Source: a virus
Taxonomy: Duplodnaviria > Heunggongvirae > Uroviricota > Caudoviricetes
Length of the DNA: 64,000 nt
Virus record (IMG/VR): IMGVR_UViG_3300043399_000596
Direction: 5' to 3' (one strand)
Each line of letters starts with the position of its first letter. Position 1 is the first letter of the stretch. The notes under the pieces were generated by a model that was given only the letters and a program-made list of their open reading frames with translations, searched no databases and was not told the DNA's origin. Below are positions 12,353-58,158 of the stretch, in pieces. A program made the position numbers and the translations under genes.

Positions 12353-12353
12353 T

Positions 12354-36443: not shown

Positions 36444-37640
36444 ATGTCCGAAGAACTAAAACCAATCAATCATTGCAGTTTTTGCGGTAACAGCAAAGAT
36501 GTAGTTAAAAAATTAATTGTGGGTGATAACGTTGCCATTTGTAGCGACTGTGTTTCATTGTGTGAGGATCTTATACAAGATGATCAATCCATAAAAGAAG
36601 ATACATTGCCAGAGTATTACCCAGACAAAATTAAAAGTTATTTAGATACTCACATCATAGGGCAAGATGATGCCAAAATGGTGCTAAGTGTTGCTATAGC
36701 TAACCACTATAAGAGAATTACTAACCCACCCAAAAATCTTGAAATGCAAAAGGGCAATGTATTAATATTAGGGCCAACTGGTTCCGGTAAAACGTTGTTG
36801 GCGAAAACTGCGGCAAAATATCTACAAGTACCATTTGTAATTGCTGATGCTACTAGTTTAACCGAAGCAGGATATGTAGGTGATGATGTAGAATCCATGA
36901 TTAATATGCTACTAAATGCTGCAGGTGGTGATAAGGCCCTTGCAGAACGCGGTATTGTTTTCATCGATGAGATTGACAAAATTGCCCGCAAAGGAGAATC
37001 GACTAGTATTACCCGTGATGTATCAGGTGAGGGAGTACAACAAGCATTACTTAAACTTGTTGAGGGAACTATTTGTAGAGTTTCTGGTCAAGGTGGGAGA
37101 AAACACCCAGGAGCAGATATGTTAGAAATTGATACTAAAAACATTCTGTTTATTGCCGGTGGTGCTTTTGTAGGATTGAAAGAACTGGTGCAAAAACGTA
37201 AAGACGGTGGAAGTATCGGTTTCAGTGCTACTGTTAAAGACGTTAAACTAGAAGGTTCGTTGAAGGAAGTTACTCCCGATGATCTTACTAAATTTGGCAT
37301 GATTCCAGAATTCATCGGTAGATTTACTACAACAGTGAGTATTGATGAATTGTCGAAGGAACAATTAGTCAAAATTCTCACTGACGTTAAAAACAATTAT
37401 ATCAGTCAATATTCGTACTTGTTTGAACTAGACGGAATTGAGTTGACATTCACCCCTGATGCTTTAGAACAAATTGCAGAAAATACGCTAAGTTTAAAAA
37501 CAGGTGCACGTGGATTACATACAGAAATCGAACGAGTATTAATGTGTCATATGTATAATACTAGAATATATAAAGAAAATAACATAAAAACACTAAATAT
37601 TACAAAGGAGCAGGTTATTAACCCTACAATATTAATATGA
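36444..37640 (+). CDS. clpX: ATP-dependent Clp protease ATP-binding subunit ClpX
   Basis: N-terminal C4 zinc finger 'CSFCGNS...CSDCVSLC', Walker A '[13 protein letters not shown]', '[10 protein letters not shown]' Walker B. Confidence 0.9.
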
Positions 37641-37855
37641 CAAAAGGAAGACGAGTACAAGTGCATGACGGAAACTGGGAAAAGGCACTAAGAAAATTAA
37701 AAAAGAAAATCACTGACACGGGTTTACTACAGGAACTAAAAGATAGACAAGAATTTGTTAAACCCGCAGTAAAAAGAAAAATTGCAAAAAACCAAGCAGT
37801 CCGTCGTTGGAAAAAACACTTGCGTGACCAGCAGCTTCCTCCCAAACTATTCTAA
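37637..37855 (+). CDS. rpsU: 30S ribosomal protein S21
   Basis: 72 aa basic; '[20 protein letters not shown]...[26 protein letters not shown]' matches S21. Confidence 0.7.
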
Positions 37856-37963
37856 CCTAAATAGTTGTATATTTTACACAATCAAATAAAATAGATATAA
37901 TTATATAGATGCTAAACAGGTCTATATCTTTATAAAATTCTTGCTTAATTAAAGGAGAACACA

Positions 37964-39850
37964 ATGAGCAAAGTCATCGGTATCGATTTGGGTACCACAA
38001 ATTCATGCGTAGCCGTTATTGAAAACGGCGTTTCAAAAATCATCGAAAACAGCGAAGGTGCACGTACTACCCCTAGTATCGTTGCATATACTAGTGACGA
38101 AGTTTTAGTCGGTGCTAGTGCTAAACGTCAAGCTGTGACAAATCCTAAAAATACAATCTATGCGGCTAAGCGTTTGATAGGTCGTAAGTTTAAAGAAGAA
38201 GCAGTTCAAAAAGATATTGACTTAATGCCATACACTATTGTTGAAAATAGCAACGGTGATGCATGGATCAAGGCACAAGACAAAAAACTTGCACCTCCTC
38301 AAGTATCTGCTGAGGTTCTTCGCAAGATGAAAAAGACTGCGGAAGATTATTTGGGGCATGAAGTAACTCAAGCAGTTATTACAGTTCCCGCATACTTTAA
38401 CGACAGTCAACGTCAAGCTACTAAAGATGCAGGTCGTATAGCAGGTCTAGAGGTTCTACGTATTATTAATGAACCAACTGCGGCTGCTCTAGCATACGGT
38501 GTAGACAAACAAGATACAAAAGACCGAAAAATTGCAGTGTATGATTTAGGTGGCGGTACTTTTGACGTTTCCATTATCGAGATTGCAAACGTTGATGGCG
38601 ATAAACAAATTGAAGTTCTTTCAACAAACGGTGACACATTCCTTGGCGGTGAAGACTTTGACCAACGCATTATGGACTTCTTGGTTGATACCTTTAAACA
38701 AGAACAAGGTATTGACTTGACTAAAGATGTATTGGCACTACAGCGTTTAAAAGAGGCTGCAGAAAAGGCAAAGATTGAATTGTCTAGTTCTGCACAGACA
38801 GACGTTAACTTGCCCTACATTACTGCTGATGCAACAGGACCTAAACATTTAAACATTAAAATCACTCGTGCTAAGTTGGAAAGTTTAGTTGACGAGTTGA
38901 TTCAACGTAGTATTAAACCTTGTAAACAAGCACTTCAGGATGCTGGTGTTACTGTCAGTGAAATCGATGAAGTTATTCTCGTCGGTGGTATGACACGTAT
39001 GCCTAAGGTACAAGAAGTTGTAGAACAGTTGTTTGGTAAAGCACCTCGTAAGGATGTTAACCCAGACGAAGCTGTAGCCGCAGGCGCCGCTATTCAAGGT
39101 AGTGTTTTATCCGGAGACAGAAAAGACGTTCTATTACTTGATGTTACACCACTAAGTTTGGGTATCGAAACAATGGGCGGTGTGTTTACTAAGTTAATTC
39201 AAAAGAACACAACTATTCCAACTAAAGCTAGTCAGACATTCTCTACTGCTGACGACAATCAACCTGCAGTAGATATTAAAGTCGGTCAAGGTGAGCGTGA
39301 ATTGTTTAAGTACAACAAACTATTAGGTGAGTTTAAACTTGACGGTATTGCGCCCGCGCCACGCGGAATGCCCCAGATTGAAGTTACCTTTGATATTGAT
39401 GCTAACGGTATCATGCATATTTCTGCAAGAGACAAAGGTACAGGTAAAGAAAACAAAATCACTATTAAGAGTGACAGCGGACTTCATGAAGCAGAAATTC
39501 AACGAATGGTCCGTGAAGCGGAAGAAAATGCAGAAGCTGATAAAAAGATGGTTGAACTCATTCAAGCACGTAATCATGCAGAATCAGTGTTGAATAATTA
39601 CAGCAATGATTATAAGAAGTTCAAGGATCAAATCACATCTGAAGAAAGTGAAAAGATTCAAACTGCAATCGATGCATGTGAAGTTGCTATTGCGGGAGAC
39701 AATACTGAAGCTATTCAGCAATCAGTAAACGATCTACATCAGGCAATCGGACCTGTGCTTGTTAAGAAGCAAGAGTCTGAGGGTTCTGGAAAGAATACAC
39801 AGTCAGTAGATGAGACTGTAGTAGATGCAGAAGTAAAAGAATCTGCGTAA
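37964..39850 (+). CDS. dnaK: molecular chaperone DnaK (Hsp70)
   Basis: '[16 protein letters not shown]', '[12 protein letters not shown]', '[14 protein letters not shown]'; 628 aa full length; SD 'aaaggagaacacaATG'. Confidence 0.95.
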
Positions 39851-39912
39851 TTTGTATCGGGTGCTGCATGGGGCAGGCCCGATATTCATTCTTGCTTTTT
39901 AAGGAGAAAACA

Positions 39913-40359
39913 ATGACAAGAGAATTATCACTACGTTCTACAGATATTCCAAATATCCACAAATTCGGTATAGGATTTGATTCAATGTTCGATGAACTGC
40001 TACGTGCAGCATCAGCACAAACACAGGGAAACTATCCACCCTATAATGTAATCAAAACAGGGGAAGAAACTGTATTGATTGAGGTTGCTGTGGCAGGCTT
40101 CAATGAAGGGGAAATAAGTATCACTGTGGAAAATAGTGTACTGAATATTTCAGGAGAACATGTACACACTGAAGGTGCAAATTGGGAGTATTTTCATCGA
40201 GGATTGAGCCGAAGAAACTTTAAGCAAAAATTTACTCTTGCGGAGCACGTAGAAGTAATCAATGCAGAAATTCTTAACGGCATTTTGAACATTTCGCTGG
40301 AAAGAAAGATTCCGGAAGAAAAGAAACCGAAAAACATTGCAATTAAGTACAATAAATAA
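39913..40359 (+). CDS. Hsp20/alpha-crystallin small heat-shock protein (IbpA-like)
   Basis: SD 'aaggagaaaacaATG'; 'GNYPPYNVIKTGEETVLIEVAVAGFNEGEISITVENSVLNISGEH' alpha-crystallin domain. Confidence 0.8.
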   Translation: MTRELSLRSTDIPNIHKFGIGFDSMFDELLRAASAQTQGNYPPYNVIKTGEETVLIEVAVAGFNEGEISITVENSVLNISGEHVHTEGANWEYFHRGLSRRNFKQKFTLAEHVEVINAEILNGILNISLERKIPEEKKPKNIAIKYNK

Positions 40360-40424
40360 TATAATCAATCTATATTAAATACGTGTGCAAGTGACCCTTG
40401 CACACATTCTTGAGATTAAATATC

Positions 40425-40730
40425 ATGCCACAAACTGATTCTAAAGTAACAATTAAACCAAACTTAAAAGTCAACGAACCGCCTATGTTTAAAGTAATCT
40501 ATATGAATGATGACTTTACCACTATGGAGTTTGTTGTCTCTAGTCTTATCGATCACTTCAATTATACCATAGATACCGCATCGCATATCACTAGCGGTAT
40601 TCACGAATCAGGAAGTGCAGTAGTTGCTGTATTACCCTTTGAAATCGCAGAACAAAAAGGCATGGAAGTAACATTAGAGGCGAGAGATCAAGGATTCCCA
40701 CTTCAAGTTAAAATTGAAGCAGAATCTTAA
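40425..40730 (+). CDS. clpS: ATP-dependent Clp protease adaptor ClpS
   Basis: 'PPMFKVIYMNDDFTTMEFVVSSL' aligns with E. coli ClpS '[23 protein letters not shown]'. Confidence 0.75.
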   Translation: MPQTDSKVTIKPNLKVNEPPMFKVIYMNDDFTTMEFVVSSLIDHFNYTIDTASHITSGIHESGSAVVAVLPFEIAEQKGMEVTLEARDQGFPLQVKIEAES

Positions 40731-41422
40731 ATCTTTATCTCTATACGCTTGGGATAATAGGGATCTCTGTCAAATTTAGAATTATTTACATACTTGACAC
40801 CGTTAATCACGGTGTCAACCATTTTATTATCAGAACCGTATACCCATATTGTAACTTTTTTCTCAGTGTCTTTATCTAAAACACTACCTGCATAGAAATC
40901 GTCAGTATTTGGTTCTTTCTCCTTAAAGAACAGTTCTTTAAGAGGAATACAATTGCTTATTAAGACAATCTTTCTCACATCATTGTGTAATTGAAGTTTT
41001 TCCAGAGTCTTTTCTAGATAGTTTATATCTTCATACTTGAACAGTTTCTGTTGGAAATCAATCATTTCACTAAAGTCAAAATATTTTTCTTGCCAACCGT
41101 TTATACCTACTATAGCAATACCATCAATAACTACCACGTTGTTATGTAAATAAATTACGTTTCTATAGTTTGAACAAATACTCTGTATTTCTTTTATCTT
41201 GGTATCCCTAGATATAGAATATTCATTCTCTAATGTACCATCAATAAAAAACACCCCATGGTATAAACCGCTGAGGTGTCTTAAAGTCCTGTGTAAAACA
41301 CCTATATCATTAGATATATTACCGGATAACACACAAAACAAACTTGTGGGTTTACCAGTCCAATTGAACTCGGATTCGGACGTTAACTGTAGGTCGCTAA
41401 GTAAATCAAACCCGAAGATCAT
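40727..41422 (-). CDS. hypothetical protein (possible calcineurin-like metallophosphoesterase)
   Basis: Weak resemblance only ('VLSGNISND', 'FIDGTLENEYS'). Confidence 0.3.
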   Translation of the reverse strand: MIFGFDLLSDLQLTSESEFNWTGKPTSLFCVLSGNISNDIGVLHRTLRHLSGLYHGVFFIDGTLENEYSISRDTKIKEIQSICSNYRNVIYLHNNVVVIDGIAIVGINGWQEKYFDFSEMIDFQQKLFKYEDINYLEKTLEKLQLHNDVRKIVLISNCIPLKELFFKEKEPNTDDFYAGSVLDKDTEKKVTIWVYGSDNKMVDTVINGVKYVNNSKFDRDPYYPKRIEIKI

Positions 41423-41437
41423 TGGTTAATTGAAAAA

Positions 41438-41770
41438 TTACTCTTTAGGTTTGCTAGCTTTTGGCTTTGCCGTTCTTGCTGCAGGCTTTTTAGCTCCACC
41501 GGTGGCTTTTGGCTTAGCTGCCTTTTTAGCAGGTTTTTTAGCTTTTTCTGCTACTTCTGCTACAGGTGCTGCTGCAACCTTATTTGGATTGTCAGCATGT
41601 GTCGCCCACTCAGTTTCAGATAACTTATGCAACCCAACACAGTATCCTGTAGGACTACGGCCGCAGCCACATTTCACAGGTTCAGGCTGCTTTGGTGTTT
41701 CCACCTTATATGGTGCCTGCGGGGCAGCAGTATCTGCAATTCCGAATAGTTTCTTTAAAAAATTAAACAT
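41438..41770 (-). CDS. histone H1-like basic protein with N-terminal Cys/His knuckle
   Basis: Strong SD on the minus strand ('aaggagaacattATG'); 'CGCGRSPTGYCVGLH'; C-terminus 'AEKAKKPAKKAAKPKATGGAKKPAARTAKPKASKPKE'. Confidence 0.55.
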   Translation of the reverse strand: MFNFLKKLFGIADTAAPQAPYKVETPKQPEPVKCGCGRSPTGYCVGLHKLSETEWATHADNPNKVAAAPVAEVAEKAKKPAKKAAKPKATGGAKKPAARTAKPKASKPKE

Positions 41771-41842
41771 AATGTTCTCCTTATCATACTATTTAGATAT
41801 TTTATACAGAATGGTATTTTTTATATTGTACTAAATAATAGT

Positions 41843-42334
41843 ATGGCATACACCGATCTAACTTTGCGAGAGTTAATGGAGTTACCGTTACCCTCTTATA
41901 CTGAGCAAAAAAGATTGTATTTTAGGCCATCACCTCGACAAATTCATCATGTTTATGAGTTAATTAACTATCACGTTTTTAACAATAAACTCAGAAAACC
42001 AAGACTAATAATTGCCCCTAGAAGACAAAAATATTGGGGGATGTGCATCGGCAATATAGAGATGCAAAAAACAGGAAGTTACTGTGATATAGAGTTAATG
42101 GATAAGTGGATAAGTGTTCAATGGATGGTAGCCACACTAGCGCACGAAATGGTTCATCAATATCAATGGGATATTCTAGGCCCGCAACGATATGATGAAG
42201 GTAAACCATTTTTAATGAGTCATGGGCCTTCATTCTTCAGTTTTAAAGACAAATTAGAAGATCATTTTATACCATTAAAGACTGCACACAGTCAGCGTAA
42301 ATGGTACAAACATCAAGATTTATTTAAAACCTAA
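41843..42334 (+). CDS. SprT/Wss1-like zinc metalloprotease
   Basis: HExxH in 'MVATLAHEMVHQYQWD'. Confidence 0.5.
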   Translation: MAYTDLTLRELMELPLPSYTEQKRLYFRPSPRQIHHVYELINYHVFNNKLRKPRLIIAPRRQKYWGMCIGNIEMQKTGSYCDIELMDKWISVQWMVATLAHEMVHQYQWDILGPQRYDEGKPFLMSHGPSFFSFKDKLEDHFIPLKTAHSQRKWYKHQDLFKT

Positions 42335-42353
42335 TATGTCATAAATACATATT

Positions 42354-43910
42354 ATGCGTGATATTTTAGATAAACTTACCCTATTAATTGAAGCTACTGG
42401 GCTAGCAGGAAGAAAACCCGGAGACCCCTTTCAAAACGATGCTGGGGAAACCATTACATTTAACAATATTCAATTCTTTCCTGAAGGTGGCGGGAGATAT
42501 GAACCCGAAGAACTCGACCAAGCAATCGCACAAGTATCTAAACAGATACCCAACATTCAATGGCAAAACGCAAAAACTACTAGGGCAGGTGGTTTTGCTC
42601 TAATCACATTTGATACTAAAAGTGGTCCTACAACAATAGGTCGTTATCTAAACGATGTAAAAGCTGATCCTGTACAGAATACAATTGATAACAAATTTGT
42701 AATGAACGGTCAGAATTGGAAGTTTGCTAGTAAATCAGCTAAGAAAGAACAATCAGGATTATCACCGTTAGACTTATTGACTGACAGAGATTTGCAAACC
42801 ATACCCGGCATCATGAATCAACTTGCCAAAAGTTTAGGAACAAGTCATCCATTGTACGCAGTCGCACACAAAGTTGCTATAGGTGAGCCGTTACCTATGT
42901 CATTCAAAGCACCTAAAGACATACCATTTGCTGCTTTCCGTGATTATTTCTGTGAGATATTACAGCCCATTGCATTGCAAAAAGGACAATTCAATGGTAA
43001 TGCTATGGATGCGGCCGAAAGATTTTTAGATGGATCCTTTGAAGATACGTTGATTACATTCGGTGCAACAAAAACAGGTGGTTTGACTGACAGTGTTATA
43101 AGCACTAAAGACGGAAAAACTTTGCTTATTAGTAGCAAAGGTGGTAAAGGTGCAGAAGCAAGTGCTAAAAACTTGTATGATGAGGTTCAGAAATTAAAAA
43201 CTAATCCTACTGGACAAAAGTTTTTAAAGAAGTATGCTAAAGAAGTTCAACTATTAGATGACATGATTGGTGCTGGTATGCACGGAGCTCCATTGAAACT
43301 AGCAGTAGATGAGGGTCTGATTGATGCAGAAGAAGCTGAACAAGTTAAAGCATTGCGAAACTTACCTAAAATAGATTTAGAGAATGTAGGTGGACTAAAA
43401 TTGTCTGCTAAATTAAAGAACCTAGCAAAATCTAGAAAGACAAAAAATCCCACTTCAGTTAACATCTACATGCACTTAATCGCTGCGATTGCACATAAAG
43501 TAGCTGAACACGTAAATGCAACAACTAATTTCCCTAAAGCTGCTGCTGACATTTTAAACAACGGAGCACTAGTTCAGGTCTACACAAAAGCGAATGAGGG
43601 AAAAGATCAATGGACTTTAAACGAATTCAAAACAGTTTATCCAAGTGATGCAATTAAAGGTGTGTTTTTGAGTGCTGGTAAAAATTACTCCAGTACTGAA
43701 ATCAAGGGTAACTTCACTTTCTTAATTGACCAAGGACAAGGTAAACCCAAAGCTAGTTCGGGTGATGATGCTCCAGAATCTACAGTAGAACCAAGCAAGA
43801 CACAGGATACTGATGATTTGGCAAAAGCTGCATCTGATATTACGGAACCTAGATCCAAACGAAAGCCACAAGCAACTTCTGGAATAGGTAGAGAAAAACG
43901 AGCCAAATAA
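42354..43910 (+). CDS. hypothetical protein (518 aa)
   Basis: ORF track; no motif recognised. Confidence 0.45.
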   Translation: MRDILDKLTLLIEATGLAGRKPGDPFQNDAGETITFNNIQFFPEGGGRYEPEELDQAIAQVSKQIPNIQWQNAKTTRAGGFALITFDTKSGPTTIGRYLNDVKADPVQNTIDNKFVMNGQNWKFASKSAKKEQSGLSPLDLLTDRDLQTIPGIMNQLAKSLGTSHPLYAVAHKVAIGEPLPMSFKAPKDIPFAAFRDYFCEILQPIALQKGQFNGNAMDAAERFLDGSFEDTLITFGATKTGGLTDSVISTKDGKTLLISSKGGKGAEASAKNLYDEVQKLKTNPTGQKFLKKYAKEVQLLDDMIGAGMHGAPLKLAVDEGLIDAEEAEQVKALRNLPKIDLENVGGLKLSAKLKNLAKSRKTKNPTSVNIYMHLIAAIAHKVAEHVNATTNFPKAAADILNNGALVQVYTKANEGKDQWTLNEFKTVYPSDAIKGVFLSAGKNYSSTEIKGNFTFLIDQGQGKPKASSGDDAPESTVEPSKTQDTDDLAKAASDITEPRSKRKPQATSGIGREKRAK

Positions 43911-43964
43911 GTTGACTTCCTACATAAAAACTGTATAATAGTTTTTATTTTACAAAGGAAGTTT

Positions 43965-44585
43965 ATGAGTCTAGTTCCAATCGTTGTCGAACAAACTGCA
44001 AAGGGTGAGCGTAGTTATGACATTTACAGCCGCCTATTGCGTGACCGTGTTGTCATGCTTGAAGGTGAAGTTCATGACCAAATGGCAAATTTGATTGTTG
44101 CCCAATTGCTTTTCCTAGAATCAGAAAACCCCGACAAAGATATTAGCATGTATATCAACAGCCCAGGTGGTCAAGTAACTGCTGGTCTAGCAATCTATGA
44201 TACGATGCAATTTATTAAGTGTGATGTTCAAACTATCGTATTGGGTCAGGCTTGTAGCATGGGTTCGTTCCTAGCACAAGCAGGTGCTAAGGGCAAACGA
44301 TTTGTTCTCCCAGAAGCACGTACTATGATTCACCGTGTTAGTTCTGGTACTCCTAGTACACGAGGTAGTGTTCATGTACAAGAACTTCAATTTGAAGATG
44401 CCAAGCGCACATTTGAAGAAAGTCAACGTATTAACAAACGTTTGACCGAACTCTATGTGAAGCACAACTCCGCAGGTAAGTCTTACGAAGAATTGTTTGA
44501 AACCATGAAGTTTGATACATTCTTGTCAGCACAGGAAGCGGTTGATTGGGGTCTCGCAGACAAAGTGGTCGAGAAGCGAGAGTAA
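43965..44585 (+). CDS. clpP: ATP-dependent Clp protease proteolytic subunit ClpP
   Basis: '[21 protein letters not shown]', active-site Ser in '[10 protein letters not shown]', His in '[10 protein letters not shown]'. Confidence 0.9.
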
Positions 44586-44603
44586 CACTCTAGTATTCAA
44601 AAT

Positions 44604-44628
44604 GCTCCGCGAGTCGGGGCTTTTTTTT
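44604..44628 (+). terminator. rho-independent terminator after clpP
   Basis: 'gctccgcgagtcggggc' hairpin followed by T8. Confidence 0.6.
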
Positions 44629-44630
44629 GG

Positions 44631-44659
44631 TTGACAAAAAATGAATTTGGGCGCATAAT
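44631..44659 (+). promoter_or_regulatory. sigma70-type promoter (TTGACA-17-CATAAT)
   Basis: 'TTGACAaaaaatgaatttgggcgCATAAT'. Confidence 0.6.
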
Positions 44660-44689
44660 TAGTAGTATCAAAAATGATAAATACTTATT

Positions 44690-44872
44690 ATGCGACTCAA
44701 TGAAATCAACCAACCTAGCAAAAAAGCAATTTTTGAAAGTCTCAAGTCTGATAAAGACCACACTTTCAACGATGACACCTTGCAGGAGATCACGGAATCC
44801 GTGAGCAACTTTAACCACAATCAGGAAAGCATGACCGTGGAAGAAGCACTTGAGTGGCTCGATAAGGTTTAA
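44690..44872 (+). CDS. hypothetical small acidic protein
   Basis: ORF track; downstream of the promoter. Confidence 0.4.
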   Translation: MRLNEINQPSKKAIFESLKSDKDHTFNDDTLQEITESVSNFNHNQESMTVEEALEWLDKV

Positions 44873-44877
44873 GGTTA

Positions 44878-45615
44878 ATGCTCAGGGTTTTAGGTACACA
44901 AACAGGCGGAGAATTAGAACGAACACTAAACAAATTTAGTGACCAAAAAGAGCGCCTAAAAAAAGAATTATCCTCTTTTATTAAATGGAAAAATAATATT
45001 CCATTTAATGGTTCTGCACCCGGATTTCAAGGTTTCGGTGATAGTGATAAGAGATTTAATACTAGAGGTAATTTAACAAAGGGCGGTAGTAATCTAAGTC
45101 ATGCACATTTAACACATAATCTAAGTATAGTATACAGCGTTAATCAAGCTGATAATACATTAACATTATACGGTATATATAGTCACGATGATTTAGGTAC
45201 TGGTAATCCACCTAATATGCAAAGGCAACAGCAAATGGCTACACGCTGGGCCAATATGAAATTTGCAGGTGATAGTGATTCTTCATTATTGAATGTAACT
45301 AAAAAAGATATTGTTCAAAAATCACCAACTAATAAACCTGATTATACACCTAAAGAAAAACCTTCCCAAGTAGCTCCACAAAAATCCGTAGAGAATCCTT
45401 TAATTAAATTAGCTAAAACTACTGATAATCAATGGCCACAAAGAAATTTATATAATCAATTAATTAATGCTAAAACAAAACAAGAACAATTAATGTTAAT
45501 TAATAAAGAAGCGCAATATCTCAACTTAATAAGACAGCGAAATAAATTATATCCAAATCAAATGGAATATATGCGTGGTTTACAATCAATTTTTAATCAG
45601 TTAACACAAAAGTAA
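44878..45615 (+). CDS. hypothetical protein (possible RelE/YafQ-like N-terminal fold, Q/N-rich C-terminus)
   Basis: 'HLTHNLSIVYSVNQADNTLTLYGIYSHDDLG' weakly resembles the RelE/YafQ core beta-strands. Confidence 0.4.
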   Translation: MLRVLGTQTGGELERTLNKFSDQKERLKKELSSFIKWKNNIPFNGSAPGFQGFGDSDKRFNTRGNLTKGGSNLSHAHLTHNLSIVYSVNQADNTLTLYGIYSHDDLGTGNPPNMQRQQQMATRWANMKFAGDSDSSLLNVTKKDIVQKSPTNKPDYTPKEKPSQVAPQKSVENPLIKLAKTTDNQWPQRNLYNQLINAKTKQEQLMLINKEAQYLNLIRQRNKLYPNQMEYMRGLQSIFNQLTQK

Positions 45616-45623
45616 ACAAAAAA

Positions 45624-45646
45624 CAGCCCCCGAGGCTGTTTTTTTT
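45624..45646 (+). terminator. rho-independent terminator
   Basis: 'cagcccccgaggctg' hairpin followed by T8. Confidence 0.65.
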
Positions 45647-45648
45647 GG

Positions 45649-45690
45649 TTGACAATAAATCAGTTTGGGCATACAATACATGTATTGATT
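45649..45690 (+). promoter_or_regulatory. reiterated early promoter: TTGACA-17-TACAAT plus 14-bp palindrome CAATACATGTATTG
   Basis: 'TTGACAataaatcagtttgggcaTACAATacatgtattgattgattaaaggag'. Confidence 0.7.
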
Positions 45691-45707
45691 GATTAAAGGA
45701 GTCTGAC

Positions 45708-45947
45708 ATGACTATCAAGCGTTTCAAACAAACCCAACGTTTTCGTATTTGTATCGGTGCTGTGTCGTTTTACGCAACCGCTAAACAGATTCGTAATGGT
45801 GTCGGTGACTTTGGTGTTTGCAATGCCGCAACACAAAAGGCTCTGGAATCTTTGGAATACACCCGCTCTTGCGGTGGTGTTCTGTCCAACACTGTTGGAC
45901 AATCTGGCACTTGGGAAGGTATGCAAGTTCAACTGAATATGGCTTGA
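45708..45947 (+). CDS. hypothetical small protein
   Basis: SD 'aaaggag'; the stop TGA lies inside the next promoter's -35 hexamer. Confidence 0.45.
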   Translation: MTIKRFKQTQRFRICIGAVSFYATAKQIRNGVGDFGVCNAATQKALESLEYTRSCGGVLSNTVGQSGTWEGMQVQLNMA

Positions 45948-45985
45948 CAATAAATCATTTCGGGCATATAATACATGTATTGATT
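45944..45985 (+). promoter_or_regulatory. reiterated early promoter copy (TTGACA-17-TATAAT, ATACATGTAT palindrome)
   Basis: 'TTGACAataaatcatttcgggcaTATAATacatgtattgattg'. Confidence 0.65.
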
Positions 45986-45998
45986 GAAAAAGACCGAA

Positions 45999-46163
45999 AT
46001 GAATACTGTTTTGTACTACTTAAATCTTGCATTTATGCCCCTGTTGTTCTTGGTCATTCTGGTCAAAAATGTATACATTCTGACTATTCAAGCATATCAC
46101 TGGACTGTCAGTGAAACAAAAAGTGCTTATCGTTCTAACCGTCGTGCGTTCAAAATGGACTGA
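45999..46163 (+). CDS. small hydrophobic membrane protein (54 aa, below track cutoff)
   Basis: 'MNTVLYYLNLAFMPLLFLVILVKNVYILTIQAYHW...' immediately downstream of the promoter copy. Confidence 0.35.
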   Translation: MNTVLYYLNLAFMPLLFLVILVKNVYILTIQAYHWTVSETKSAYRSNRRAFKMD

Positions 46164-46174
46164 AAGGTAATACT

Positions 46175-46384
46175 ATGGGTTACAAAATTCTGCGTGAGCG
46201 TGATGCTAAGTATCAACCCCGTGACGGTCTGGAAGGTCCTTTCTTCTACCCGAACGGTCAGGTTCTGTACTACGATCCGAAAGAAGGAAAGTACTACGAT
46301 CCTACTACCGACTTCTATGTCGAATATGAGGACGTGCAGGAACTGCAAAATCAAATCTTGAGCCTGCTTGTGGGTAAAAACTAA
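46175..46384 (+). CDS. hypothetical small protein
   Basis: SD 'aaaggtaatactATG'. Confidence 0.45.
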   Translation: MGYKILRERDAKYQPRDGLEGPFFYPNGQVLYYDPKEGKYYDPTTDFYVEYEDVQELQNQILSLLVGKN

Positions 46385-46402
46385 TACGAAAGCTAACAAA
46401 AA

Positions 46403-46606
46403 ATGTATACTTTAGTATTCATTTTATCTACCCCGGTCTTCTTAGGGGAATATTATAACCTAGCCTCGTGTCAGAATGCGATCCGTGAAATTTACGCATT
46501 TCAAATCAACCCTGCTGGACAGCGCCTGCCTGAGTTAAACGAAAGTATTAATATTCGGGCCAATACACAAAAGTCTTACCTCTGTATACCGAAGAAAAAG
46601 GATTGA
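46403..46606 (+). CDS. hypothetical small protein
   Basis: ORF track; stop TGA inside the next -35. Confidence 0.4.
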   Translation: MYTLVFILSTPVFLGEYYNLASCQNAIREIYAFQINPAGQRLPELNESINIRANTQKSYLCIPKKKD

Positions 46607-46644
46607 CAATAAATCGTTTTGGGCATACAATACATGTATTGATT
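46603..46644 (+). promoter_or_regulatory. reiterated early promoter copy
   Basis: 'TTGACAataaatcgttttgggcaTACAATacatgtattgattgattaacggag'. Confidence 0.7.
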
Positions 46645-46662
46645 GATTAACGGAGCACTGAA

Positions 46663-46992
46663 ATGTTTGAAAAAGAAACCGAACACAAAAACGCAGGTCA
46701 ATGGGCTTGGTTTGCTGAGCGTGATGCCCGTATGCGTAGTGCAGTCAATAGTACTACTTTTTCTGATACTCAAAAACTGAAAGCCGAGCGTGTCAAATTG
46801 GCTCTGGAAATGGTTTACAGTGCTGAAAAAGTATTCATTGAATACCGCAAAAAATTCATTAGTGTAAAAGTACACAAAGCACAGGTAAAGGATAACAAAG
46901 GTCTGATCCTTCTGGACATGTGCTACAAAAACGAAGGTCTTGAGAAGGTCAAGACTGCACAAGGTGTAACATATCGTATTCTGAAAGTCTAA
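46663..46992 (+). CDS. hypothetical protein
   Basis: ORF track. Confidence 0.45.
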   Translation: MFEKETEHKNAGQWAWFAERDARMRSAVNSTTFSDTQKLKAERVKLALEMVYSAEKVFIEYRKKFISVKVHKAQVKDNKGLILLDMCYKNEGLEKVKTAQGVTYRILKV

Positions 46993-46994
46993 TC

Positions 46995-47183
46995 ATGCGT
47001 AACAAAAAAGTACTCAAATTGGAACAAGCTATCAATACTCTGGAATATGCAAAATTCCAGATCAAAGAGGCTCTGGGTGACACTGACTCCTACCAAATGT
47101 CTGCCAATCAAATTGATGCTCTGATTGAGGATATCAATGTTGACCTTGAATACCTTGCTCAATCTCGCTACCAGCGCGGTTGA
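46995..47183 (+). CDS. hypothetical small protein
   Basis: ORF track; stop inside the next -35. Confidence 0.4.
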   Translation: MRNKKVLKLEQAINTLEYAKFQIKEALGDTDSYQMSANQIDALIEDINVDLEYLAQSRYQRG

Positions 47184-47220
47184 CAATAAATGGTTTTGGG
47201 CATATAATACTTGTATTGAG
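47180..47220 (+). promoter_or_regulatory. reiterated early promoter copy (TTGACA-17-TATAAT, degenerate palindrome)
   Basis: 'TTGACAataaatggttttgggcaTATAATacttgtattgag'. Confidence 0.6.
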
Positions 47221-47234
47221 TTTGAAAGCAACAC

Positions 47235-47378
47235 ATGTCCGTCTATATTGTCATTCGCAACGATAAAATTGATTCGGTGTTTCTAACACAAGAAAAGGCT
47301 CAGGAACACATTGACAGCATCAAAGGTTGGAATCTTTGGAAAATAGTTGAAAAAGAAATTGAAGGAACATTAGTATGA
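47235..47378 (+). CDS. small protein (47 aa, below track cutoff)
   Basis: '[47 protein letters not shown]'; ATGA-coupled to the next gene. Confidence 0.35.
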   Translation: MSVYIVIRNDKIDSVFLTQEKAQEHIDSIKGWNLWKIVEKEIEGTLV

Positions 47379-47638
47379 ACCAACGAATTTATGAACTTCG
47401 GTGCAAGGCTCAAGAGGCCGCGGCTGAGGCTTTTCCTGGCGATGTGCCATTTGACCCAAATCCCGATCCAATACTGTGGGACAGGATTCATTCAAGTTAT
47501 GAATTGTTCGCCCAGTTGATTGTCCAACGGACATTGGATATCATTGAAGCACACACTGAAATTTTTCAAAGTGCCGAAGCAAAAGCCATGGTTGAACATA
47601 TTAAACAATCTGTAAAAACTGATTTTGGGATTGATTAA
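47375..47638 (+). CDS. hypothetical small protein
   Basis: ORF track. Confidence 0.4.
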
Positions 47639-48144
47639 AGATAGGACCAACCATCTTTATTGACAGAGCACCTGTATCGGATGCCTTCACTGGTTATATG
47701 ATACGCATTTGCGGCATCTATTAACTTATTGAATATCGTACCGTCAGGTGCTACACATCCTTTAACTCTCCAAGTTTGAGTACGACCTAGCATTTTGTCT
47801 CTGATTTTCTTTTTATGATCCTCAGACCTTTTTGCTCCAGTGGCACCATCCCCTCCATCAGATTTATTGCGTAATATACCGGTATTAATATCTTTTCTTC
47901 CATACCATTTAATTAATCTACGCTCAATTGCTAATGCACCAATATCAGTTAAATTGGACTCTATTATTATAATTTTATTAATATTAACCGGCGGATAAAC
48001 CTCACCTTTTCCTTTAATCCAGGCTCTTTTACCTAAACCTTTTCCGATATAATATGGGGTATTATCTTGTCTCAGATATGCGTAAACATAGAATCCGTTG
48101 GGCGGATTTGATTTTGAATAAATATTCATGCTGATGCTCCTCAA
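47635..48144 (-). mobile_element. GIY-YIG homing endonuclease gene (free-standing HEG), antisense to the surrounding early genes
   Basis: '[26 protein letters not shown]' GIY-YIG core plus a basic C-terminal DNA-binding region; the only minus-strand gene in a plus-strand array. Confidence 0.75.
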
Positions 48145-48227
48145 TAGCGTTAGAGTAGTTGGGGTTTCCGACGCCCGCGAACTACACTTTTATTTATCAT
48201 TGTTGCGCCAAAACAACACCCAAAAAT

Positions 48228-48268
48228 TTGACAAATATTCCCAAATCTGCTACAATACTTGTATTGAA
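48228..48268 (+). promoter_or_regulatory. reiterated early promoter copy
   Basis: 'TTGACAaatattcccaaatctgcTACAATacttgtattgaaac'. Confidence 0.6.
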
Positions 48269-48290
48269 ACTGATAAACAGGAGTTAACAA

Positions 48291-48716
48291 ATGGCGTATG
48301 TTAGTCAAGACCTGAAAAAGCAACTGGTCCCTGCTATCAAAGCAGTGCTGAAAAAGTACGGTGTCAAGGGTACTATCGCTGTTCGCAATCATTCTACCCT
48401 GGTTGTCAACATCAAGTCGGGTCCTATTGACTTTATTGAAAATTTCATCCAAACCGATGCCGACAGCAATATCGGTCGCAAAATGGATCAATCTCAAATT
48501 GACTACATTCGGAAGAACCAATCTCTGGATGTGAATCCTTACTGGTACAAGGAACACTTCTCTGGTAAGGCTAAGGCTTTCTTGTCTGAACTTTTGCCCG
48601 TAATGAACAATGGCAACCACGATAATTCCGATATCCAAACTGACTACTTTGACGTAGGTTGGTACGTGGATGTGAACATTGGTAAGTGGAACAAACCCTA
48701 CATTTTCTCTAATTAA
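48291..48716 (+). CDS. hypothetical protein
   Basis: SD 'caggagttaacaaATG'; preferred over the antisense ORF 48150..48638. Confidence 0.5.
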   Translation: MAYVSQDLKKQLVPAIKAVLKKYGVKGTIAVRNHSTLVVNIKSGPIDFIENFIQTDADSNIGRKMDQSQIDYIRKNQSLDVNPYWYKEHFSGKAKAFLSELLPVMNNGNHDNSDIQTDYFDVGWYVDVNIGKWNKPYIFSN

Positions 48717-48725
48717 GGACTAATC

Positions 48726-48863
48726 ATGCAACAATTCCGTATTCGAATCTTCCTGACTGAATCTCAATTTACCGATACTGTGATTATGGCTGAAAACTGG
48801 TTTACTGCCCAGGCGATTGGTCAAGGTCAAAGCCCGGTCGGTAAGGCATTGCTTCTTAACTGA
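48726..48863 (+). CDS. small protein (45 aa, below track cutoff)
   Basis: SD 'taaggactaatcATG'. Confidence 0.3.
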   Translation: MQQFRIRIFLTESQFTDTVIMAENWFTAQAIGQGQSPVGKALLLN

Positions 48864-48882
48864 ATTTTGGTAACATCTATGG

Positions 48883-48918
48883 TTGACAAAAATAACTGTA
48901 GGTGTTATCATTATAACT
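48883..48918 (+). promoter_or_regulatory. sigma70-type promoter (TTGACA-17-TATCAT)
   Basis: 'TTGACAaaaataactgtaggtgtTATCAT'. Confidence 0.5.
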
Positions 48919-48966
48919 ATGTCGTAAGACATATTTTTCATCAACCTAGCTATTAAAGGAAACATC

Positions 48967-49362
48967 ATGGCTAATCAAACTTTCAAAGTTGCAGGTATTA
49001 CTACTCATAACGGTAATTCTAAAGTTCGTTTCACTGACGACCTCATCCGTCGGGTGAAGCAATTCACAAAAGGTGGTGCGACACGCATCGACCTTATGGA
49101 ACTTCCCAGTGAGATGACAAAGGTAGAGGCATTGCAATATATGCAATCTCATGCTGATTTTTCTAGCGCAGAAGATCAGGCACTTATTGCTGACGCACTG
49201 GAAGATCGTCAGAAAACCGCAAATAAGGGCGTAGTTAAAGTCAAGGCTACCAAAACAGCTAAGCCCAGCATTGAAGCTATCAAGGCTCGTGGTAAAAAGA
49301 AAGAAGTCACCGCAGAAGAAATCGTTGCGGCAGCTGATCTCCATAATGTAGATCCTGCATGA
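48967..49362 (+). CDS. hypothetical protein with Lys-rich C-terminus
   Basis: SD 'aaaggaaacatcATG'. Confidence 0.45.
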   Translation: MANQTFKVAGITTHNGNSKVRFTDDLIRRVKQFTKGGATRIDLMELPSEMTKVEALQYMQSHADFSSAEDQALIADALEDRQKTANKGVVKVKATKTAKPSIEAIKARGKKKEVTAEEIVAAADLHNVDPA

Positions 49363-49556
49363 TGAAAGTGTCCGACAAACTCTCTAAAGTCAGCGACAGC
49401 CTGACTGTCAACATGTACGACAACGGTTACATGGTTGAGGTGTCAGGCCGCAATGACGACGGTGATTGGGCTACTGCAAAAGTACTTTGTTCTACTTTAG
49501 ATGAAGTCAATGCAGTTATCAAAGAGGTCGCAACTGAAATTACTCGGGATAGTTGA
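49359..49556 (+). CDS. hypothetical small protein
   Basis: ATGA overlap. Confidence 0.4.
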   Translation: MMKVSDKLSKVSDSLTVNMYDNGYMVEVSGRNDDGDWATAKVLCSTLDEVNAVIKEVATEITRDS

Positions 49557-49557
49557 T

Positions 49558-49776
49558 ATGCTACTTACTACTTTTCGTCGGAAATTAGTTCAGCGCAGAG
49601 ACTTTGATCCTTCTAACCCCGAAGATTTGAAAGAACTTAAGTATTTCAAAGATAACGGTAAATGGAGAGCGTCATGCCCTTTTTATCTAGAGGATCCGTA
49701 TGTTGAAGTGCCCGCGATGTGCGAGGGTAAGTTTACAACTTACATGCTTGACAAGTTAGTGAAAAGTAAGAAATAA
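49558..49776 (+). CDS. hypothetical small protein
   Basis: Internal Met right after the upstream stop. Confidence 0.4.
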   Translation: MLLTTFRRKLVQRRDFDPSNPEDLKELKYFKDNGKWRASCPFYLEDPYVEVPAMCEGKFTTYMLDKLVKSKK

Positions 49777-49801
49777 AAAAGCCCCTTAAGGGGCTTTTTT
49801 T
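49775..49801. terminator. bidirectional rho-independent terminator between the convergent early (+) and late (-) blocks
   Basis: 'aaaaaagccccttaaggggcttttttt': perfect GC hairpin flanked by A-run and T-run. Confidence 0.75.
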
Positions 49802-50636
49802 ACCACGTTGAAAGTGCCGCTCGTTTCCATGTATTGGTTGCAATACATATATAAACATAGGTACTGTCATATGCAATTTGTCCAGCAGTTCCGGTGTCTG
49901 ATGCTGTTGTAGGTACTGTGCTACTAATAGTCACATTCCCCCAATTCATTATACCATTACCGTCTTGTGTTAAGAATTGACCTACTGAACCTGCAGTATT
50001 GGGTAATTGCCAAAGTATGTAGGACGACCCGATGCTATTGGGACCCTGAAATGCAACAAATTTAGAGTTATCTGTTACTGTGTTTAATTTCAAGTAACCA
50101 GTATTTGCAATTACAGCAGAATTTGAGAAAGTGCCGTCTTTCATTGCTGTCGTACCCAGAGTTGCCGAAATGTTACCGGCAGTAAGGTTACCTACACTTG
50201 TGATTGTTCCAGTGGAATAAACGTTTCCTACGTTAGCTGTTCCAGTAACATTTGCGTTACCGGTAGCACTAATGCTGCCAGTAACAATAATATTACCTGT
50301 TAAAGTAAGATTAGAAGTTGTTTTATTGAATGTTAGGTTAGAGTTTCCAGCAAGACTTCCACCATCGTTAAATTGAACTTGTGTGTTTGCCCCGCCCGCA
50401 CTTGCTGAGTCAGCTCCCCAACTTAGCACACCTGAACCGTTTGTTTTTAACACTTGACCAGCACTTCCTCCGGTAATTGTAATATTACCTACGGCACCTA
50501 AATTTGCGCTAACGGTTACGTTTATGTTACCGACATTACTTATGTCTGAACCACCTAATTCTAAACTATCAGCAGACGGAAGTTCCTTAATCACGGATGA
50601 ACTTGAATCTACTACTAATGGGTATCTATTTGCCAT
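49800..50636 (-). CDS. tail fibre-like repeat protein
   Basis: Gly/Asn/Thr/Ser-rich quasi-repeats 'GNANVTGTANVGNVYSTGTITSVGNLTAGNISATLG'. Confidence 0.55.
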   Translation of the reverse strand: MANRYPLVVDSSSSVIKELPSADSLELGGSDISNVGNINVTVSANLGAVGNITITGGSAGQVLKTNGSGVLSWGADSASAGGANTQVQFNDGGSLAGNSNLTFNKTTSNLTLTGNIIVTGSISATGNANVTGTANVGNVYSTGTITSVGNLTAGNISATLGTTAMKDGTFSNSAVIANTGYLKLNTVTDNSKFVAFQGPNSIGSSYILWQLPNTAGSVGQFLTQDGNGIMNWGNVTISSTVPTTASDTGTAGQIAYDSTYVYICIATNTWKRAALSTW

Positions 50637-50659
50637 TTTTTTATCCTTTTATATATTTA

Positions 50660-52000
50660 TCAACTCAATGAAATCTGAACAAGGGCACCGGTACGAGTTT
50701 CCAAAGTATACTTTCTTAGGACTACATCAGGTGGTGCAGAGACTGTACTTACTCCATCACGCAATGTGATAGTAAGATATTGGACTGGGATAGTTTTCCA
50801 TCCTAATGTCTGGGTACTAGCGTCCGCCGTAACTCCCAAAACTTGATAAATTGTTCCTGGTGAATCGGGAACATAAAAACTACTATCTTCTATCACTGAA
50901 GGTGTTACAAATGAGACAGAATTACCAGAAGAATTTAAAAATCTTACAGCACTGTCATCACCTACAATATTCAAAGTGTCCGATACATTTACGTTTGATG
51001 TAATATTCGCATTTCCCGAGATTTCAATATCAGTAAATGATGCGGCGTTGGGTGTATTATCACCTATGATACCGTCAAAATAACCACCTATATTTGCATT
51101 TAGTGTAGTAATATTGGCAGCATTAATTGTTGCTGTTCCGGTGACTTCAAAATCTACAGTCTCAATATATGAATTTGCAGTAAACGTATTGGCTACAATA
51201 TTACCTGCAACTTCAACATCATCGGGGATATCAATCGTAATATCACCTTCAGTTGTAACTGGTGATCCAGTAATAGTCAACGTGTTACTAGTTACATCAA
51301 TTCTAGTAACAGTGCCCAAATCACCGAAATTAGCATCGATGGTTACATTTCCAGTACTATTACTGATAGAGATATTGTTTCCTGCAGTAATAGCAGTAAC
51401 ACCAGTATTTTCAATCTCTATTGTACCACTACTTGTTATGGGACTATTTGTGATTTGTAAACCGTCACCTGTTGCTGTGATCGCCACACTAGTAACTGTG
51501 CCTATGCTCACGGTGTTTGCTATTTCAGTGATTCTACCGTAATTATCAACGGTTAGTGTTGGTGCAACATATTCCCCAGCAGCAAAAGCCGGGCCTGTTG
51601 GTATATACGGTAATTCTACATTAATCGTACCACTACTTACAATAGGAGAATCAGAAATTGTCAAAGTTTCGGAAGATAAAGCTACACTGGTTACAGTGCC
51701 GCCGGCGTTGCTTCCTCCACTAGAAGAAATTACTACATTACCATTAGAACTAGAAAGCGATATCCCAGTACCAGCAATAATGCTTACCACTCCAGTGTTT
51801 TCTATTTCTACGTTTCCAGTAGATGGATTTGTTGATATACCTATACCGGGGCTGCCGATAAAAGTGTCGTATGAACTAGCCCCATCAAATAATGTAGTGA
51901 AATTTTGTTGTATTTTAGTGAATGCTTCATAGAGAGTATCACTACCCGCAGCTTGATTTTCACCACCTATGTCGATGTTATTTTGTCCTGAAATAGCCAT
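50660..52000 (-). CDS. tail fibre protein
   Basis: 'IENTGVxxIxAGxxISxS' repeats; C-terminus 'TSDTGTAGQIAYDSTYVYICIATNTWKRAAL'. Confidence 0.6.
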   Translation of the reverse strand: MAISGQNNIDIGGENQAAGSDTLYEAFTKIQQNFTTLFDGASSYDTFIGSPGIGISTNPSTGNVEIENTGVVSIIAGTGISLSSSNGNVVISSSGGSNAGGTVTSVALSSETLTISDSPIVSSGTINVELPYIPTGPAFAAGEYVAPTLTVDNYGRITEIANTVSIGTVTSVAITATGDGLQITNSPITSSGTIEIENTGVTAITAGNNISISNSTGNVTIDANFGDLGTVTRIDVTSNTLTITGSPVTTEGDITIDIPDDVEVAGNIVANTFTANSYIETVDFEVTGTATINAANITTLNANIGGYFDGIIGDNTPNAASFTDIEISGNANITSNVNVSDTLNIVGDDSAVRFLNSSGNSVSFVTPSVIEDSSFYVPDSPGTIYQVLGVTADASTQTLGWKTIPVQYLTITLRDGVSTVSAPPDVVLRKYTLETRTGALVQISLS

Positions 52001-52026
52001 ATTCTAGTACCTTAATATAGTATTTA

Positions 52027-52578
52027 TCACAAATGTCTACCCCAACGGGTGTTGATGTGAGACCAATTCATTATCTTCCAGGTATTTTCTAGATATTCTT
52101 TTTTATCAGCTAGGTAATCAAGTGTCCAGGCATGTTCCCACCAGTCAACTAAAATTAATATGTCGTCACGAACTTCATGGTTTACGATTGTCTTTATTTC
52201 ACCGGTAAACGACATATATATCCAAGCAGAACCCTGAAGTTTCAATGCTTCTTCTTTGAATACTTCTTTGAAGTCACGCCACCATCCGTACTTTCTTTTT
52301 ATAAGATTCAGTACGGGTCCGTTAGGGGTATTATTTTCTTGTGGCTTACGAAACTGTGAAAAGTAGATATTATGTAGGAAAGCGCCAGCGTAATTAAAAT
52401 CGCTGTCGCCTTCTTTGTTCTTGTAACGTTTAACATACCCCTTTGCTAGGGTATCGTAATGTAATTCTAAAGTGGCTTTAGAAAGTACCGGACTTAGATC
52501 GGTGTAGGAATATTGGAGTGGTTCTAACTCTATCTGTTTCCTTCGGGATTCTTCTAATTTCTCTACAACGTCATACAT
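52027..52578 (-). CDS. Fe/Mn superoxide dismutase
   Basis: 'LEPLQYSYTDLSPVLSKATLELHYDTLAKGYV' and 'DWWEHAWTLDY' Fe/Mn-SOD signatures. Confidence 0.8.
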   Translation of the reverse strand: MYDVVEKLEESRRKQIELEPLQYSYTDLSPVLSKATLELHYDTLAKGYVKRYKNKEGDSDFNYAGAFLHNIYFSQFRKPQENNTPNGPVLNLIKRKYGWWRDFKEVFKEEALKLQGSAWIYMSFTGEIKTIVNHEVRDDILILVDWWEHAWTLDYLADKKEYLENTWKIMNWSHINTRWGRHL

Positions 52579-52592
52579 CGTAGAGTATTTAG

Positions 52593-52808
52593 TCAGCGAC
52601 GGCGCGTGATACGACCTTTTGTCAAGTCATATGGACTAAATTCAATTTCTACCGTGTCTCCTAGTAGAATCTTAATATCATGTTGCCGCATTTTGCCAGA
52701 GATATACCCCATAATAACGTTATCTCCGGGCATCTTGACCCTGAACATTGCATTGGGTAAAACTTCAGTTACTACCCCGTCCATTTTAAAACCTTCTTCT
52801 TTTGCCAT
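52593..52808 (-). CDS. infA: translation initiation factor IF-1
   Basis: 'DGVVTEVLPNAMFRVKMPGDNVIMGYISGKMRQHDIKILLGDTVEIEFSPYDLTKGRI' nearly collinear with E. coli InfA. Confidence 0.8.
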   Translation of the reverse strand: MAKEEGFKMDGVVTEVLPNAMFRVKMPGDNVIMGYISGKMRQHDIKILLGDTVEIEFSPYDLTKGRITRRR

Positions 52809-52826
52809 TTTAAGTTTGCTTTCTCC

Positions 52827-56369: not shown

Positions 56370-56372
56370 TGT

Positions 56373-57170: not shown

Positions 57171-57206
57171 TAACAAAAAGATGCATAAGCATCCGGGAGA
57201 ACTAAA

Positions 57207-58157: not shown

Positions 58158-58158
58158 C

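Follow-up and report, generated by a model that had tools for sequence, protein, structure and literature searches.

Genes for ribosomal protein S21 and initiation factor IF-1 in conserved contexts of a large aquatic phage lineage

The S21 and IF-1 genes

The stretch of DNA analysed here (64,000 nucleotides (nt) in length, hereafter the window) belongs to the IMG/VR virus record IMGVR_UViG_3300043399_000596, assigned to Caudoviricetes, and encodes homologues of two proteins of the bacterial translation apparatus: ribosomal protein bS21, of 72 amino acids (aa) (37637-37855, plus strand), and translation initiation factor IF-1, of 71 aa (52593-52808, minus strand). On the evidence of sequence comparison, both have long resided in their phage lineage, where they were inherited vertically under strong constraint. 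A reading of the sequence alone, made without database searches (the sequence-only reading), had described them as full-length, conserved genes at 37637 and 52593; these positions proved right, and both products passed the curated Pfam and TIGRFAM cut-offs.

The S21 protein scored 54.3 bits against the Pfam family PF01165 (cut-off 27; profile positions 2-53 of 55) and 46.8 against the NCBIfam equivalog S21p, TIGR00030 (cut-off 28.95), and it also matched phrog_21469, annotated as ribosomal protein S21. It is strongly basic, with 22 lysine or arginine residues versus seven aspartate or glutamate residues overall, and 10 versus one in the last 30 residues, so that the basic C-terminus ascribed to it is indeed there. 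A short basic insert, KGRR, is located near the N-terminus, while the conserved C-terminal motif LPPKLF parallels the aromatic end of Escherichia coli bS21. Conservation extends over the whole length of the protein in 120 members of the clade, the aromatic C-terminus included.

The IF-1 protein matched the IF-1/eIF-1A family of Pfam (PF01176) with 76.9 bits (cut-off 30.2) over profile positions 2-64 of 64, and the NCBIfam equivalog infA (TIGR00008) with a score of 101.5 (cut-off 61.15). Its residues 1-70 align without gaps with IF1 of both E. coli and P. aeruginosa, which bears out the collinearity with E. coli InfA claimed earlier. An AlphaFold model, built from 25 clade sequences and reaching a predicted local distance difference test score (pLDDT) of 85.4, has the five-stranded OB (S1-like) fold expected of the family. 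This predicted structure superimposes on 30S-bound E. coli IF1 (9fco_I) with template modelling (TM) scores of 0.91/0.92 and a root-mean-square deviation of 1.1 A, and on 1hr0_W with a TM score of 0.88. The motifs LPNAMFRV, SGKMR, GD and PYDLxKGRI, as well as R70, are kept, and the corresponding columns are invariant or nearly so in an alignment of 118 phage-clade and 77 cellular sequences. At other positions that are otherwise conserved, residues specific to the phage clade include G6, K8, K46 (arginine in cellular proteins), L49, E54 and F57, and the C-terminus of the clade is one residue shorter than that of the cellular set.

The sequence-only reading had further pointed out that both proteins act on the 30S subunit at initiation, and as far as membership of such families goes, this is borne out. 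In the bacterial ribosome, bS21 sits at the platform of the 30S subunit beside the anti-Shine-Dalgarno sequence, and IF-1 is bound in the A site.

The ClpX-S21 locus

The S21 gene is located, as had been noted from the sequence, between genes for a ClpX-like AAA+ unfoldase (36444-37640, plus strand; Pfam zf-C4_ClpX and AAA_2) and DnaK/Hsp70 (37964-39850, plus strand; PF00012, E 2.7e-259). The stop codon of ClpX and the start codon of S21 overlap in the window in the tetranucleotide ATGA. The same arrangement recurs in the relatives: ClpX precedes S21 in 18 related loci, and in every one of them the end of ClpX and the start of S21 share 1-32 nt. No Shine-Dalgarno motif was found ahead of the S21 start. 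Because the overlap is found in every one of these loci and S21 has no such motif of its own, S21 is most likely translated by coupling to ClpX.

Further genes of protein quality control follow on the plus strand, namely those for a small heat-shock protein Hsp20 (39868-40359; PF00011), the adaptor ClpS (40425-40730; PF02617) and the protease ClpP (43965-44585; PF00574, E 7e-67). Together with ClpX, DnaK and a SprT-like protein, they make up a complete proteostasis module around S21 (36444-44585). The neighbourhood is widely kept, since in the IMG/VR loci DnaK (56 of 80), Hsp20 (59 of 80) and ClpS (59 of 80) lie downstream of S21, always on the same strand. DnaK is absent from this position in a 357-kb (L010) and a 367-kb (L009) relative. 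Two sigma-70-like promoters, each matching the consensus at 11 of 12 positions, were predicted within the module: TTTACA-17-TATAAT, which is intergenic and 63 nt upstream of DnaK (37873-37901, plus strand), and another ahead of ClpP (43912-43939, plus strand).

The IF-1 transcription unit

The IF-1 gene is part of a putative minus-strand transcription unit, which has a near-consensus sigma-70 promoter (TTGACA-17-TATACT, 53801-53773) at its head and begins with p133, a conserved protein of unknown function (53348-53749; phrog_27048). Next come two small open reading frames (ORFs), p83 (83 aa; 53104-53355) and p99 (99 aa; 52827-53126), then IF-1 and, directly downstream of it, an Fe/Mn superoxide dismutase (SOD)-like protein (52027-52578; PF02777 and PF00081). 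The genes p446 (50660-52000) and p278 (49800-50636) complete the unit, which closes with an intrinsic-terminator-like hairpin consisting of an 11-bp stem followed by a T run (49775-49800). Upstream of the unit, on the same strand, are genes for an NT5C 5'-nucleotidase (54365-54919), a small MazE/AbrB-like protein (54175-54360) and p120. Most of these neighbours are found beside IF-1, and in the same orientation, in the 80 IMG/VR loci compared: p133 in 78, p120 in 72, the MazE-like gene in 64, the SOD gene in 60, NT5C in 59 and p446 in 48.

The promoter is conserved as well. Of 78 related loci, 69 have a match to at least 10 of the 12 consensus positions within 120 nt upstream of p133, and in 51 of them it is perfect (12/12), versus none of 78 coding controls with a match; in two relatives (L003 and L006), it occupies the same position as in the window. 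More generally, of the 17 best matches to the sigma-70 consensus in the window, 13 are followed within 85 nt by a start codon in the same orientation, although non-coding DNA makes up only about 7% of the sequence. The late-promoter motif of phage T4, TATAAATA, has no copy in the whole window, versus 6.45 expected. Sigma-70-like promoters are a mark of early genes in phages of the T4 type. Since the promoter of the IF-1 unit is of this type and conserved, the unit looks early rather than late. With its frequent promoters of this type and no T4 late motif, the window as a whole has the appearance of an early or host-takeover region.

The sequence-only reading had assigned IF-1 to a late tail-fibre operon, a description which the analysis does not support. 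A late unit of the T4 type would have TATAAATA upstream and would be made up of structural genes; the IF-1 unit has neither feature, and its genes are mostly of auxiliary type, with only p446 and p278 possibly fibre-like. The p446 protein is repeat-rich and without a match in Pfam or PHROG. Its family comprises at least 867 homologues of 350-690 aa, in which the N-terminal 60% is conserved and the C-terminus varies, a pattern seen in receptor-binding fibres. Its structural model was poor (pLDDT 56) and fold matches stayed below a TM score of 0.2, the matched proteins being mostly of fibre type; a tblastn search with p446 against GenBank phages gave nothing. For p278, the C-terminal 41 aa match tail-protein PHROGs (phrog_17312, E 7e-11; phrog_9942, E 1e-4). 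Both are plausibly fibre-like, and the other surroundings of IF-1 (5'-nucleotidase, MazE-like and SOD-like proteins) are of auxiliary type.

The MazE/AbrB-like gene in this conserved block offers circumstantial support for a role in counter-defence, in which the phage copies would act as decoys against abortive-infection systems or toxins by which the host recognises or targets IF-1 or S21. Such a role is very improbable: no family linked to defence or anti-defence turned up beside either gene, and no established system working in this way came to light.

Several other features of the unit may be mentioned. The C-terminal motif FMWVKL, common to the products of p83 and p99, suggests a pair of tandem paralogues; not all relatives have them, p83 being present in six and p99 in 17 of 80. 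In the SOD-like protein, the N-terminal domain is shortened, while the four metal-ligand positions are kept, as judged by eye; in L003 and L006, the SOD-like gene is followed by a gene for an IscA-like Fe-S assembly protein. Homologues of p133 occur in phages PhiW-14, ACP17 and BUCT-ZZ01, and in 62 of 80 loci from phages with more distant S21 genes, p133 precedes S21 by about 4 kb. The 502-aa protein encoded upstream of S21 was considered as a homologue of p133, an idea that did not hold.

Long residence in the phage lineage

The sequence-only reading had allowed for the two genes being recent passengers from the host, broken by premature stops in related phages. Nothing of this kind was seen: the 120 relatives listed for each protein (240 in all) are 70-99 aa long and cover 96-100% of the query, and the gene order around them is kept. 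Compared with three to four diverged relatives, whose proteins are 75-89% identical, the window genes differ at a proportion of 0.67-0.88 of synonymous sites (pS) and 0.08-0.18 of nonsynonymous sites (pN). These proportions alone are given, as synonymous sites are saturated and the synonymous substitution rate (dS) cannot be estimated for most pairs. Among relatives, S21 is 75-79% and the adjacent ClpX 76-77% identical; the two have diverged equally, as expected of joint vertical descent. The GC content of S21, both overall and at third codon positions (GC3), equals the window mean, and the GC3 of IF-1 is about two standard deviations higher, inside the range of its neighbours.

Comparison with cellular proteins gave a similar picture. 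Among the matches listed, IF-1 proteins of the phage clade are 77-93% identical to that of the window. In a scan of 185,579 GTDB species genomes seeded by exact shared 8-residue words, the nearest cellular IF-1 among the matches listed was 65% identical and came from a gammaproteobacterial metagenome-assembled genome (MAG), followed by proteins with 57-63% identity, many of them from alphaproteobacterial MAGs. The taxonomic scatter of these matches names no host, and a cellular IF-1 closer than 65% is unlikely to exist. The same scan revealed no relative of S21. An exhaustive HMMER search of 1.84 billion representative proteins found full-length S21 matches outside the clade that were only 44-58% identical, all of them metagenomic. 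In a neighbour-joining tree, the 118 distinct IF-1 sequences of the phage clade formed one group apart from 77 cellular ones, with a bootstrap of 81/100.

Conserved synteny, saturated synonymous sites under protein constraint and the lack of any close cellular homologue in these searches argue that S21 and IF-1 are not passengers. The typical housekeeping nature of both proteins in cells is what might suggest recently captured, functionless host genes, or even a cellular origin of the window itself. Such an origin is scarcely credible in view of the strong amino-acid constraint, the synteny across viral contigs, the ameliorated base composition and the phage-type genes all around.

The phage and its other genes

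The window has 38.5% GC, is about 93% coding and carries some 109 mostly small ORFs in a dense array. Its best named protein matches are proteins of pelagimyophages and phage Melnitz, and further ORFs match PHROGs built from such phages; one large protein (61554-63617), for example, is 40% identical to a protein of Melnitz and 38% to a protein of HTVC008M. A curli-type cluster (55824-60527) encodes CsgF, CsgG, two proteins matching Curlin_rpt (one weakly, one faintly) and a FecR-like protein. Curli genes of the CsgF/CsgG type have been described as a peculiarity of pelagimyophages (PMC7029224). A megablast search with 20 kb around S21 and IF-1 found no nucleotide match among GenBank phages. 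As regards membership of the pelagimyophages, S21, CsgF/CsgG and several other proteins match at about 40%, while the window holds no structural core genes to compare.

Relatives of the window IF-1 were found on 382 viral contigs in IMG/VR, and relatives of its S21 on 80. Homologues of both occur in independent samples, on contigs 348-374 kb long; a contig of 357,561 bp carries both genes, and the S21 and IF-1 blocks recur in contigs of 357 kb and 367 kb. The viral origin of the window is indicated by the dense array of small ORFs, the pelagimyophage and Melnitz matches, the curli cluster and the occurrence of the same blocks on hundreds of viral contigs. On these grounds, it is regarded as part of a large aquatic tailed phage, a distant relative of pelagimyophages such as HTVC008M and Melnitz. 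The genome is probably about 350-370 kb in size, a value taken from the relatives, as the contig of the window itself measures 95.8 kb. The tight clustering of related contigs at 348-374 kb suggests a discrete clade of jumbo phages.

No paper naming this clade of about 350 kb or discussing its S21 and IF-1 genes was found in the literature, and neither a survey of marine jumbo phages (PMC9123017) nor a jumbo-phage review of 2026 (PMC13282480) mentions S21 or IF-1 genes. The 'Moraphages' (PMC12619734) were considered as a possible lineage and set aside: their genomes are 200-307 kb, their predicted hosts are Bacteroidota, and S21 and initiation factors are never mentioned for them.

The rest of the window contains a variety of cargo genes. 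GTP cyclohydrolase I, a QueD-like 6-pyruvoyl-tetrahydropterin synthase and a protein with a weak radical-SAM match are encoded at 5354-9068, which suggests a 7-deazaguanine (preQ0-type) pathway for the modification of DNA or tRNA. Other regions (11492-13373 and 29355-32426, and 25437-26312 and 47635-48129 on the minus strand) encode an NAD-dependent sugar epimerase, UV endonuclease UvdE and an ATP-dependent DNA ligase, as well as a LuxR/sigma-70-region-4-like regulator, an SPFH/Band-7 protein and a weakly matching I-TevI-like homing-endonuclease DNA-binding domain. There are no tRNA genes in the 64-kb window.

Possible role of S21 and IF-1 in infection

Taken together, S21 and IF-1 of the phage are rather likely to be made during infection and to join the 30S subunits of the host, where they may sustain or bias translation initiation. 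Both proteins would be produced from promoters of sigma-70 type read by the host RNA polymerase, IF-1 from its dedicated early operon and S21 by translational coupling to the phage ClpX within the chaperone and protease module. They would then bind the host 30S subunit at their canonical sites, bS21 at the platform and IF-1 in the A site. In this way, the phage would maintain or increase the capacity for initiation, perhaps with a preference for its own mRNAs, as the host supply of these proteins declines. The direct takeover of host translation initiation to which the pair pointed in the sequence-only reading is thereby a plausible interpretation.

Several observations weigh against this scheme. 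The promoters are consensus matches. The one that would serve ClpX and S21 is weak in the window, where the best candidates match at 9-10 of 12 positions, and inconsistent among relatives, some of which have a perfect sigma-70 consensus ahead of ClpX, at a distance of 64-78 nt; when S21 is expressed is therefore uncertain. The likeness of S21 to bS21 of solved structure is weak, with E values from 3e-7 (best) to 1e-3 for the bS21 chains of the PDB. In IF-1, residues that are nearly invariant in cellular proteins are swapped in the phage clade (H30N, A34G, H35Y, R/Y44D and Y/F69R), and these substitutions could alter its function. The spacing of its Shine-Dalgarno-like motif is also non-canonical: an AAGGAG (52823-52828, minus strand), overlapping the stop codon of p99, lies 14 nt upstream of the IF-1 AUG. 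A GGAG at 11-16 nt from the AUG was found in 59 of 75 relatives, versus a spacing of 6-7 nt for motifs of this type in other genes of the window and mostly 5-6 nt in cellular infA. Termination-reinitiation coupling and autoregulation are possibilities for this long spacing.

Some of these features would suit selective reprogramming of the host ribosome, i.e. the formation of a phage-specialised 30S subunit which favours phage mRNAs, maybe with removal of the host versions of the proteins by ClpXP and ClpS. The substitutions at positions conserved in cells point in this direction, as does the strict coupling of S21 to ClpX within the Clp/DnaK module, and the idea is favoured in published discussions of phage translation genes (PMC7162821, PMC9723584). 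No distinctive feature of phage mRNAs, such as a leader of a special class, was found in the window: ordinary Shine-Dalgarno motifs, at a spacing of 6-7 nt, precede about half of its genes, and the other half lack them. For this reason, supplementation or replacement of the host proteins is ranked above selective reprogramming, which is possible, though not likely. An elaborate form of the latter, a coordinated remodelling of the ribosome, would combine an early, divergent IF-1 with its leader of 14-15 nt, a ClpX-coupled S21, and ClpXP, ClpS, DnaK and Hsp20 that clear or refold host components, to yield the specialised 30S subunit; this seems quite unlikely.

The two proteins might instead work away from the initiation complex, IF-1 mainly as an RNA chaperone with an OB fold, similar to cold-shock proteins or antiterminators, and S21 as an RNA-binding or ClpX-associated protein. 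The OB fold is common to other RNA-binding and ribosome-associated proteins, RsgA/YjeQ being among the structure matches, and the clade-specific residues of IF-1 would fit an altered role. In addition, the neighbours of S21 are chaperones and not translation genes, and Hsp20 and Clp neighbours have likewise been reported for other phages (PMC9723584). Nevertheless, IF-1 has kept every motif in common with its cellular counterparts, the equivalog scores are well over the cut-offs, and the model fits ribosome-bound IF1 closely, which makes this explanation doubtful. Non-ribosomal roles, whether as RNA chaperone or as decoy, are thus placed lower than both supplementation and reprogramming, and the participation of phage S21 and IF-1 in initiation on host 30S subunits is the interpretation preferred here.

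Comparison with known systems

The closest named phages with S21 are the pelagimyophages, T4-like phages of the HTVC008M type that infect SAR11 and OM43. The bS21 of HTVC008M enters E. coli ribosomes, as it was found in ribosome fractions (Mizuno et al. 2019, PMC6375957), and bS21 is a core gene of the group, reported outside any cluster (Zaragoza-Solas et al. 2020, PMC7029224). The window resembles them in combining a lineage-conserved S21 with curli genes (CsgF/CsgG) on a marine genome of myophage type. It differs in several respects: its S21 is only about 43-44% identical to S21 of Melnitz and Mosig and lacks their long N-terminal extension, having only the short basic insert; the gene overlaps ClpX in a chaperone and protease module, whereas that of pelagimyophages is unclustered; and related contigs are about 350-370 kb in size, compared with about 140-150 kb for pelagimyophages. 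No match to IF-1 was found in HTVC008M, Melnitz or Mosig.

Genes for IF1, IF3, S1, S4, S21 and L7/L12 are carried by huge phages, in which they have been read as redirecting host translation (Al-Shayeb et al. 2020, PMC7162821). The lineage of the window is similar in having a large genome with IF1 and S21 among its translation genes, while its IF-1 is only 47-49% identical to IF-1 of the Lak megaphages. An IF-1 gene is present in 35 GenBank phage records, among them Lak megaphages, Sinorhizobium phage Phosso and Bacteroides DAC phages, and all of these proteins are less than 60% identical to that of the window. Such low identity points to independent acquisition, and the window IF-1 is apparently a further instance, independent of other phage IF-1 genes. 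An IF-1-family gene is also one of the 39 core genes of the Jug (jumbo gut) phages, described in 2026 with genomes of 360-402 kb (PMC12880540). These phages likewise have IF-1 as a conserved single-copy gene of a jumbo clade; they differ in their gut habitat and in their predicted hosts, Bacteroides and Phocaeicola. With the huge phages, the Jug core gene and the 382 IMG/VR contigs on record, the statement of the sequence-only reading that a viral IF-1 is much less common than a viral S21 is overstated.

About 900 phage genomes encoding bS21 have been surveyed (Chen et al. 2022, PMC9723584). The freshwater Bacteroidetes phages in that survey have genomes of up to 331 kb, and Hsp20 and Clp protease genes were listed among the frequent neighbours of phage bS21, as in the window. 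In these phages, however, S21 belongs to a highly expressed structural (late) block, whereas in the window it is located in a ClpX/DnaK/Hsp20/ClpS block, in a region rich in promoters of sigma-70 type.

Phage S21 and IF-1 are thus already on record, and the window adds a member rather than a concept. No published study testing whether such genes sustain or re-specify translation was found. With its fixed contexts, the coupling of S21 to ClpX and the putative early sigma-70 operon of IF-1, the clade described here would be well suited to distinguishing sustained from re-specified host translation, and compared with the systems known so far, its clean and conserved genetic architecture would make such functional tests straightforward.

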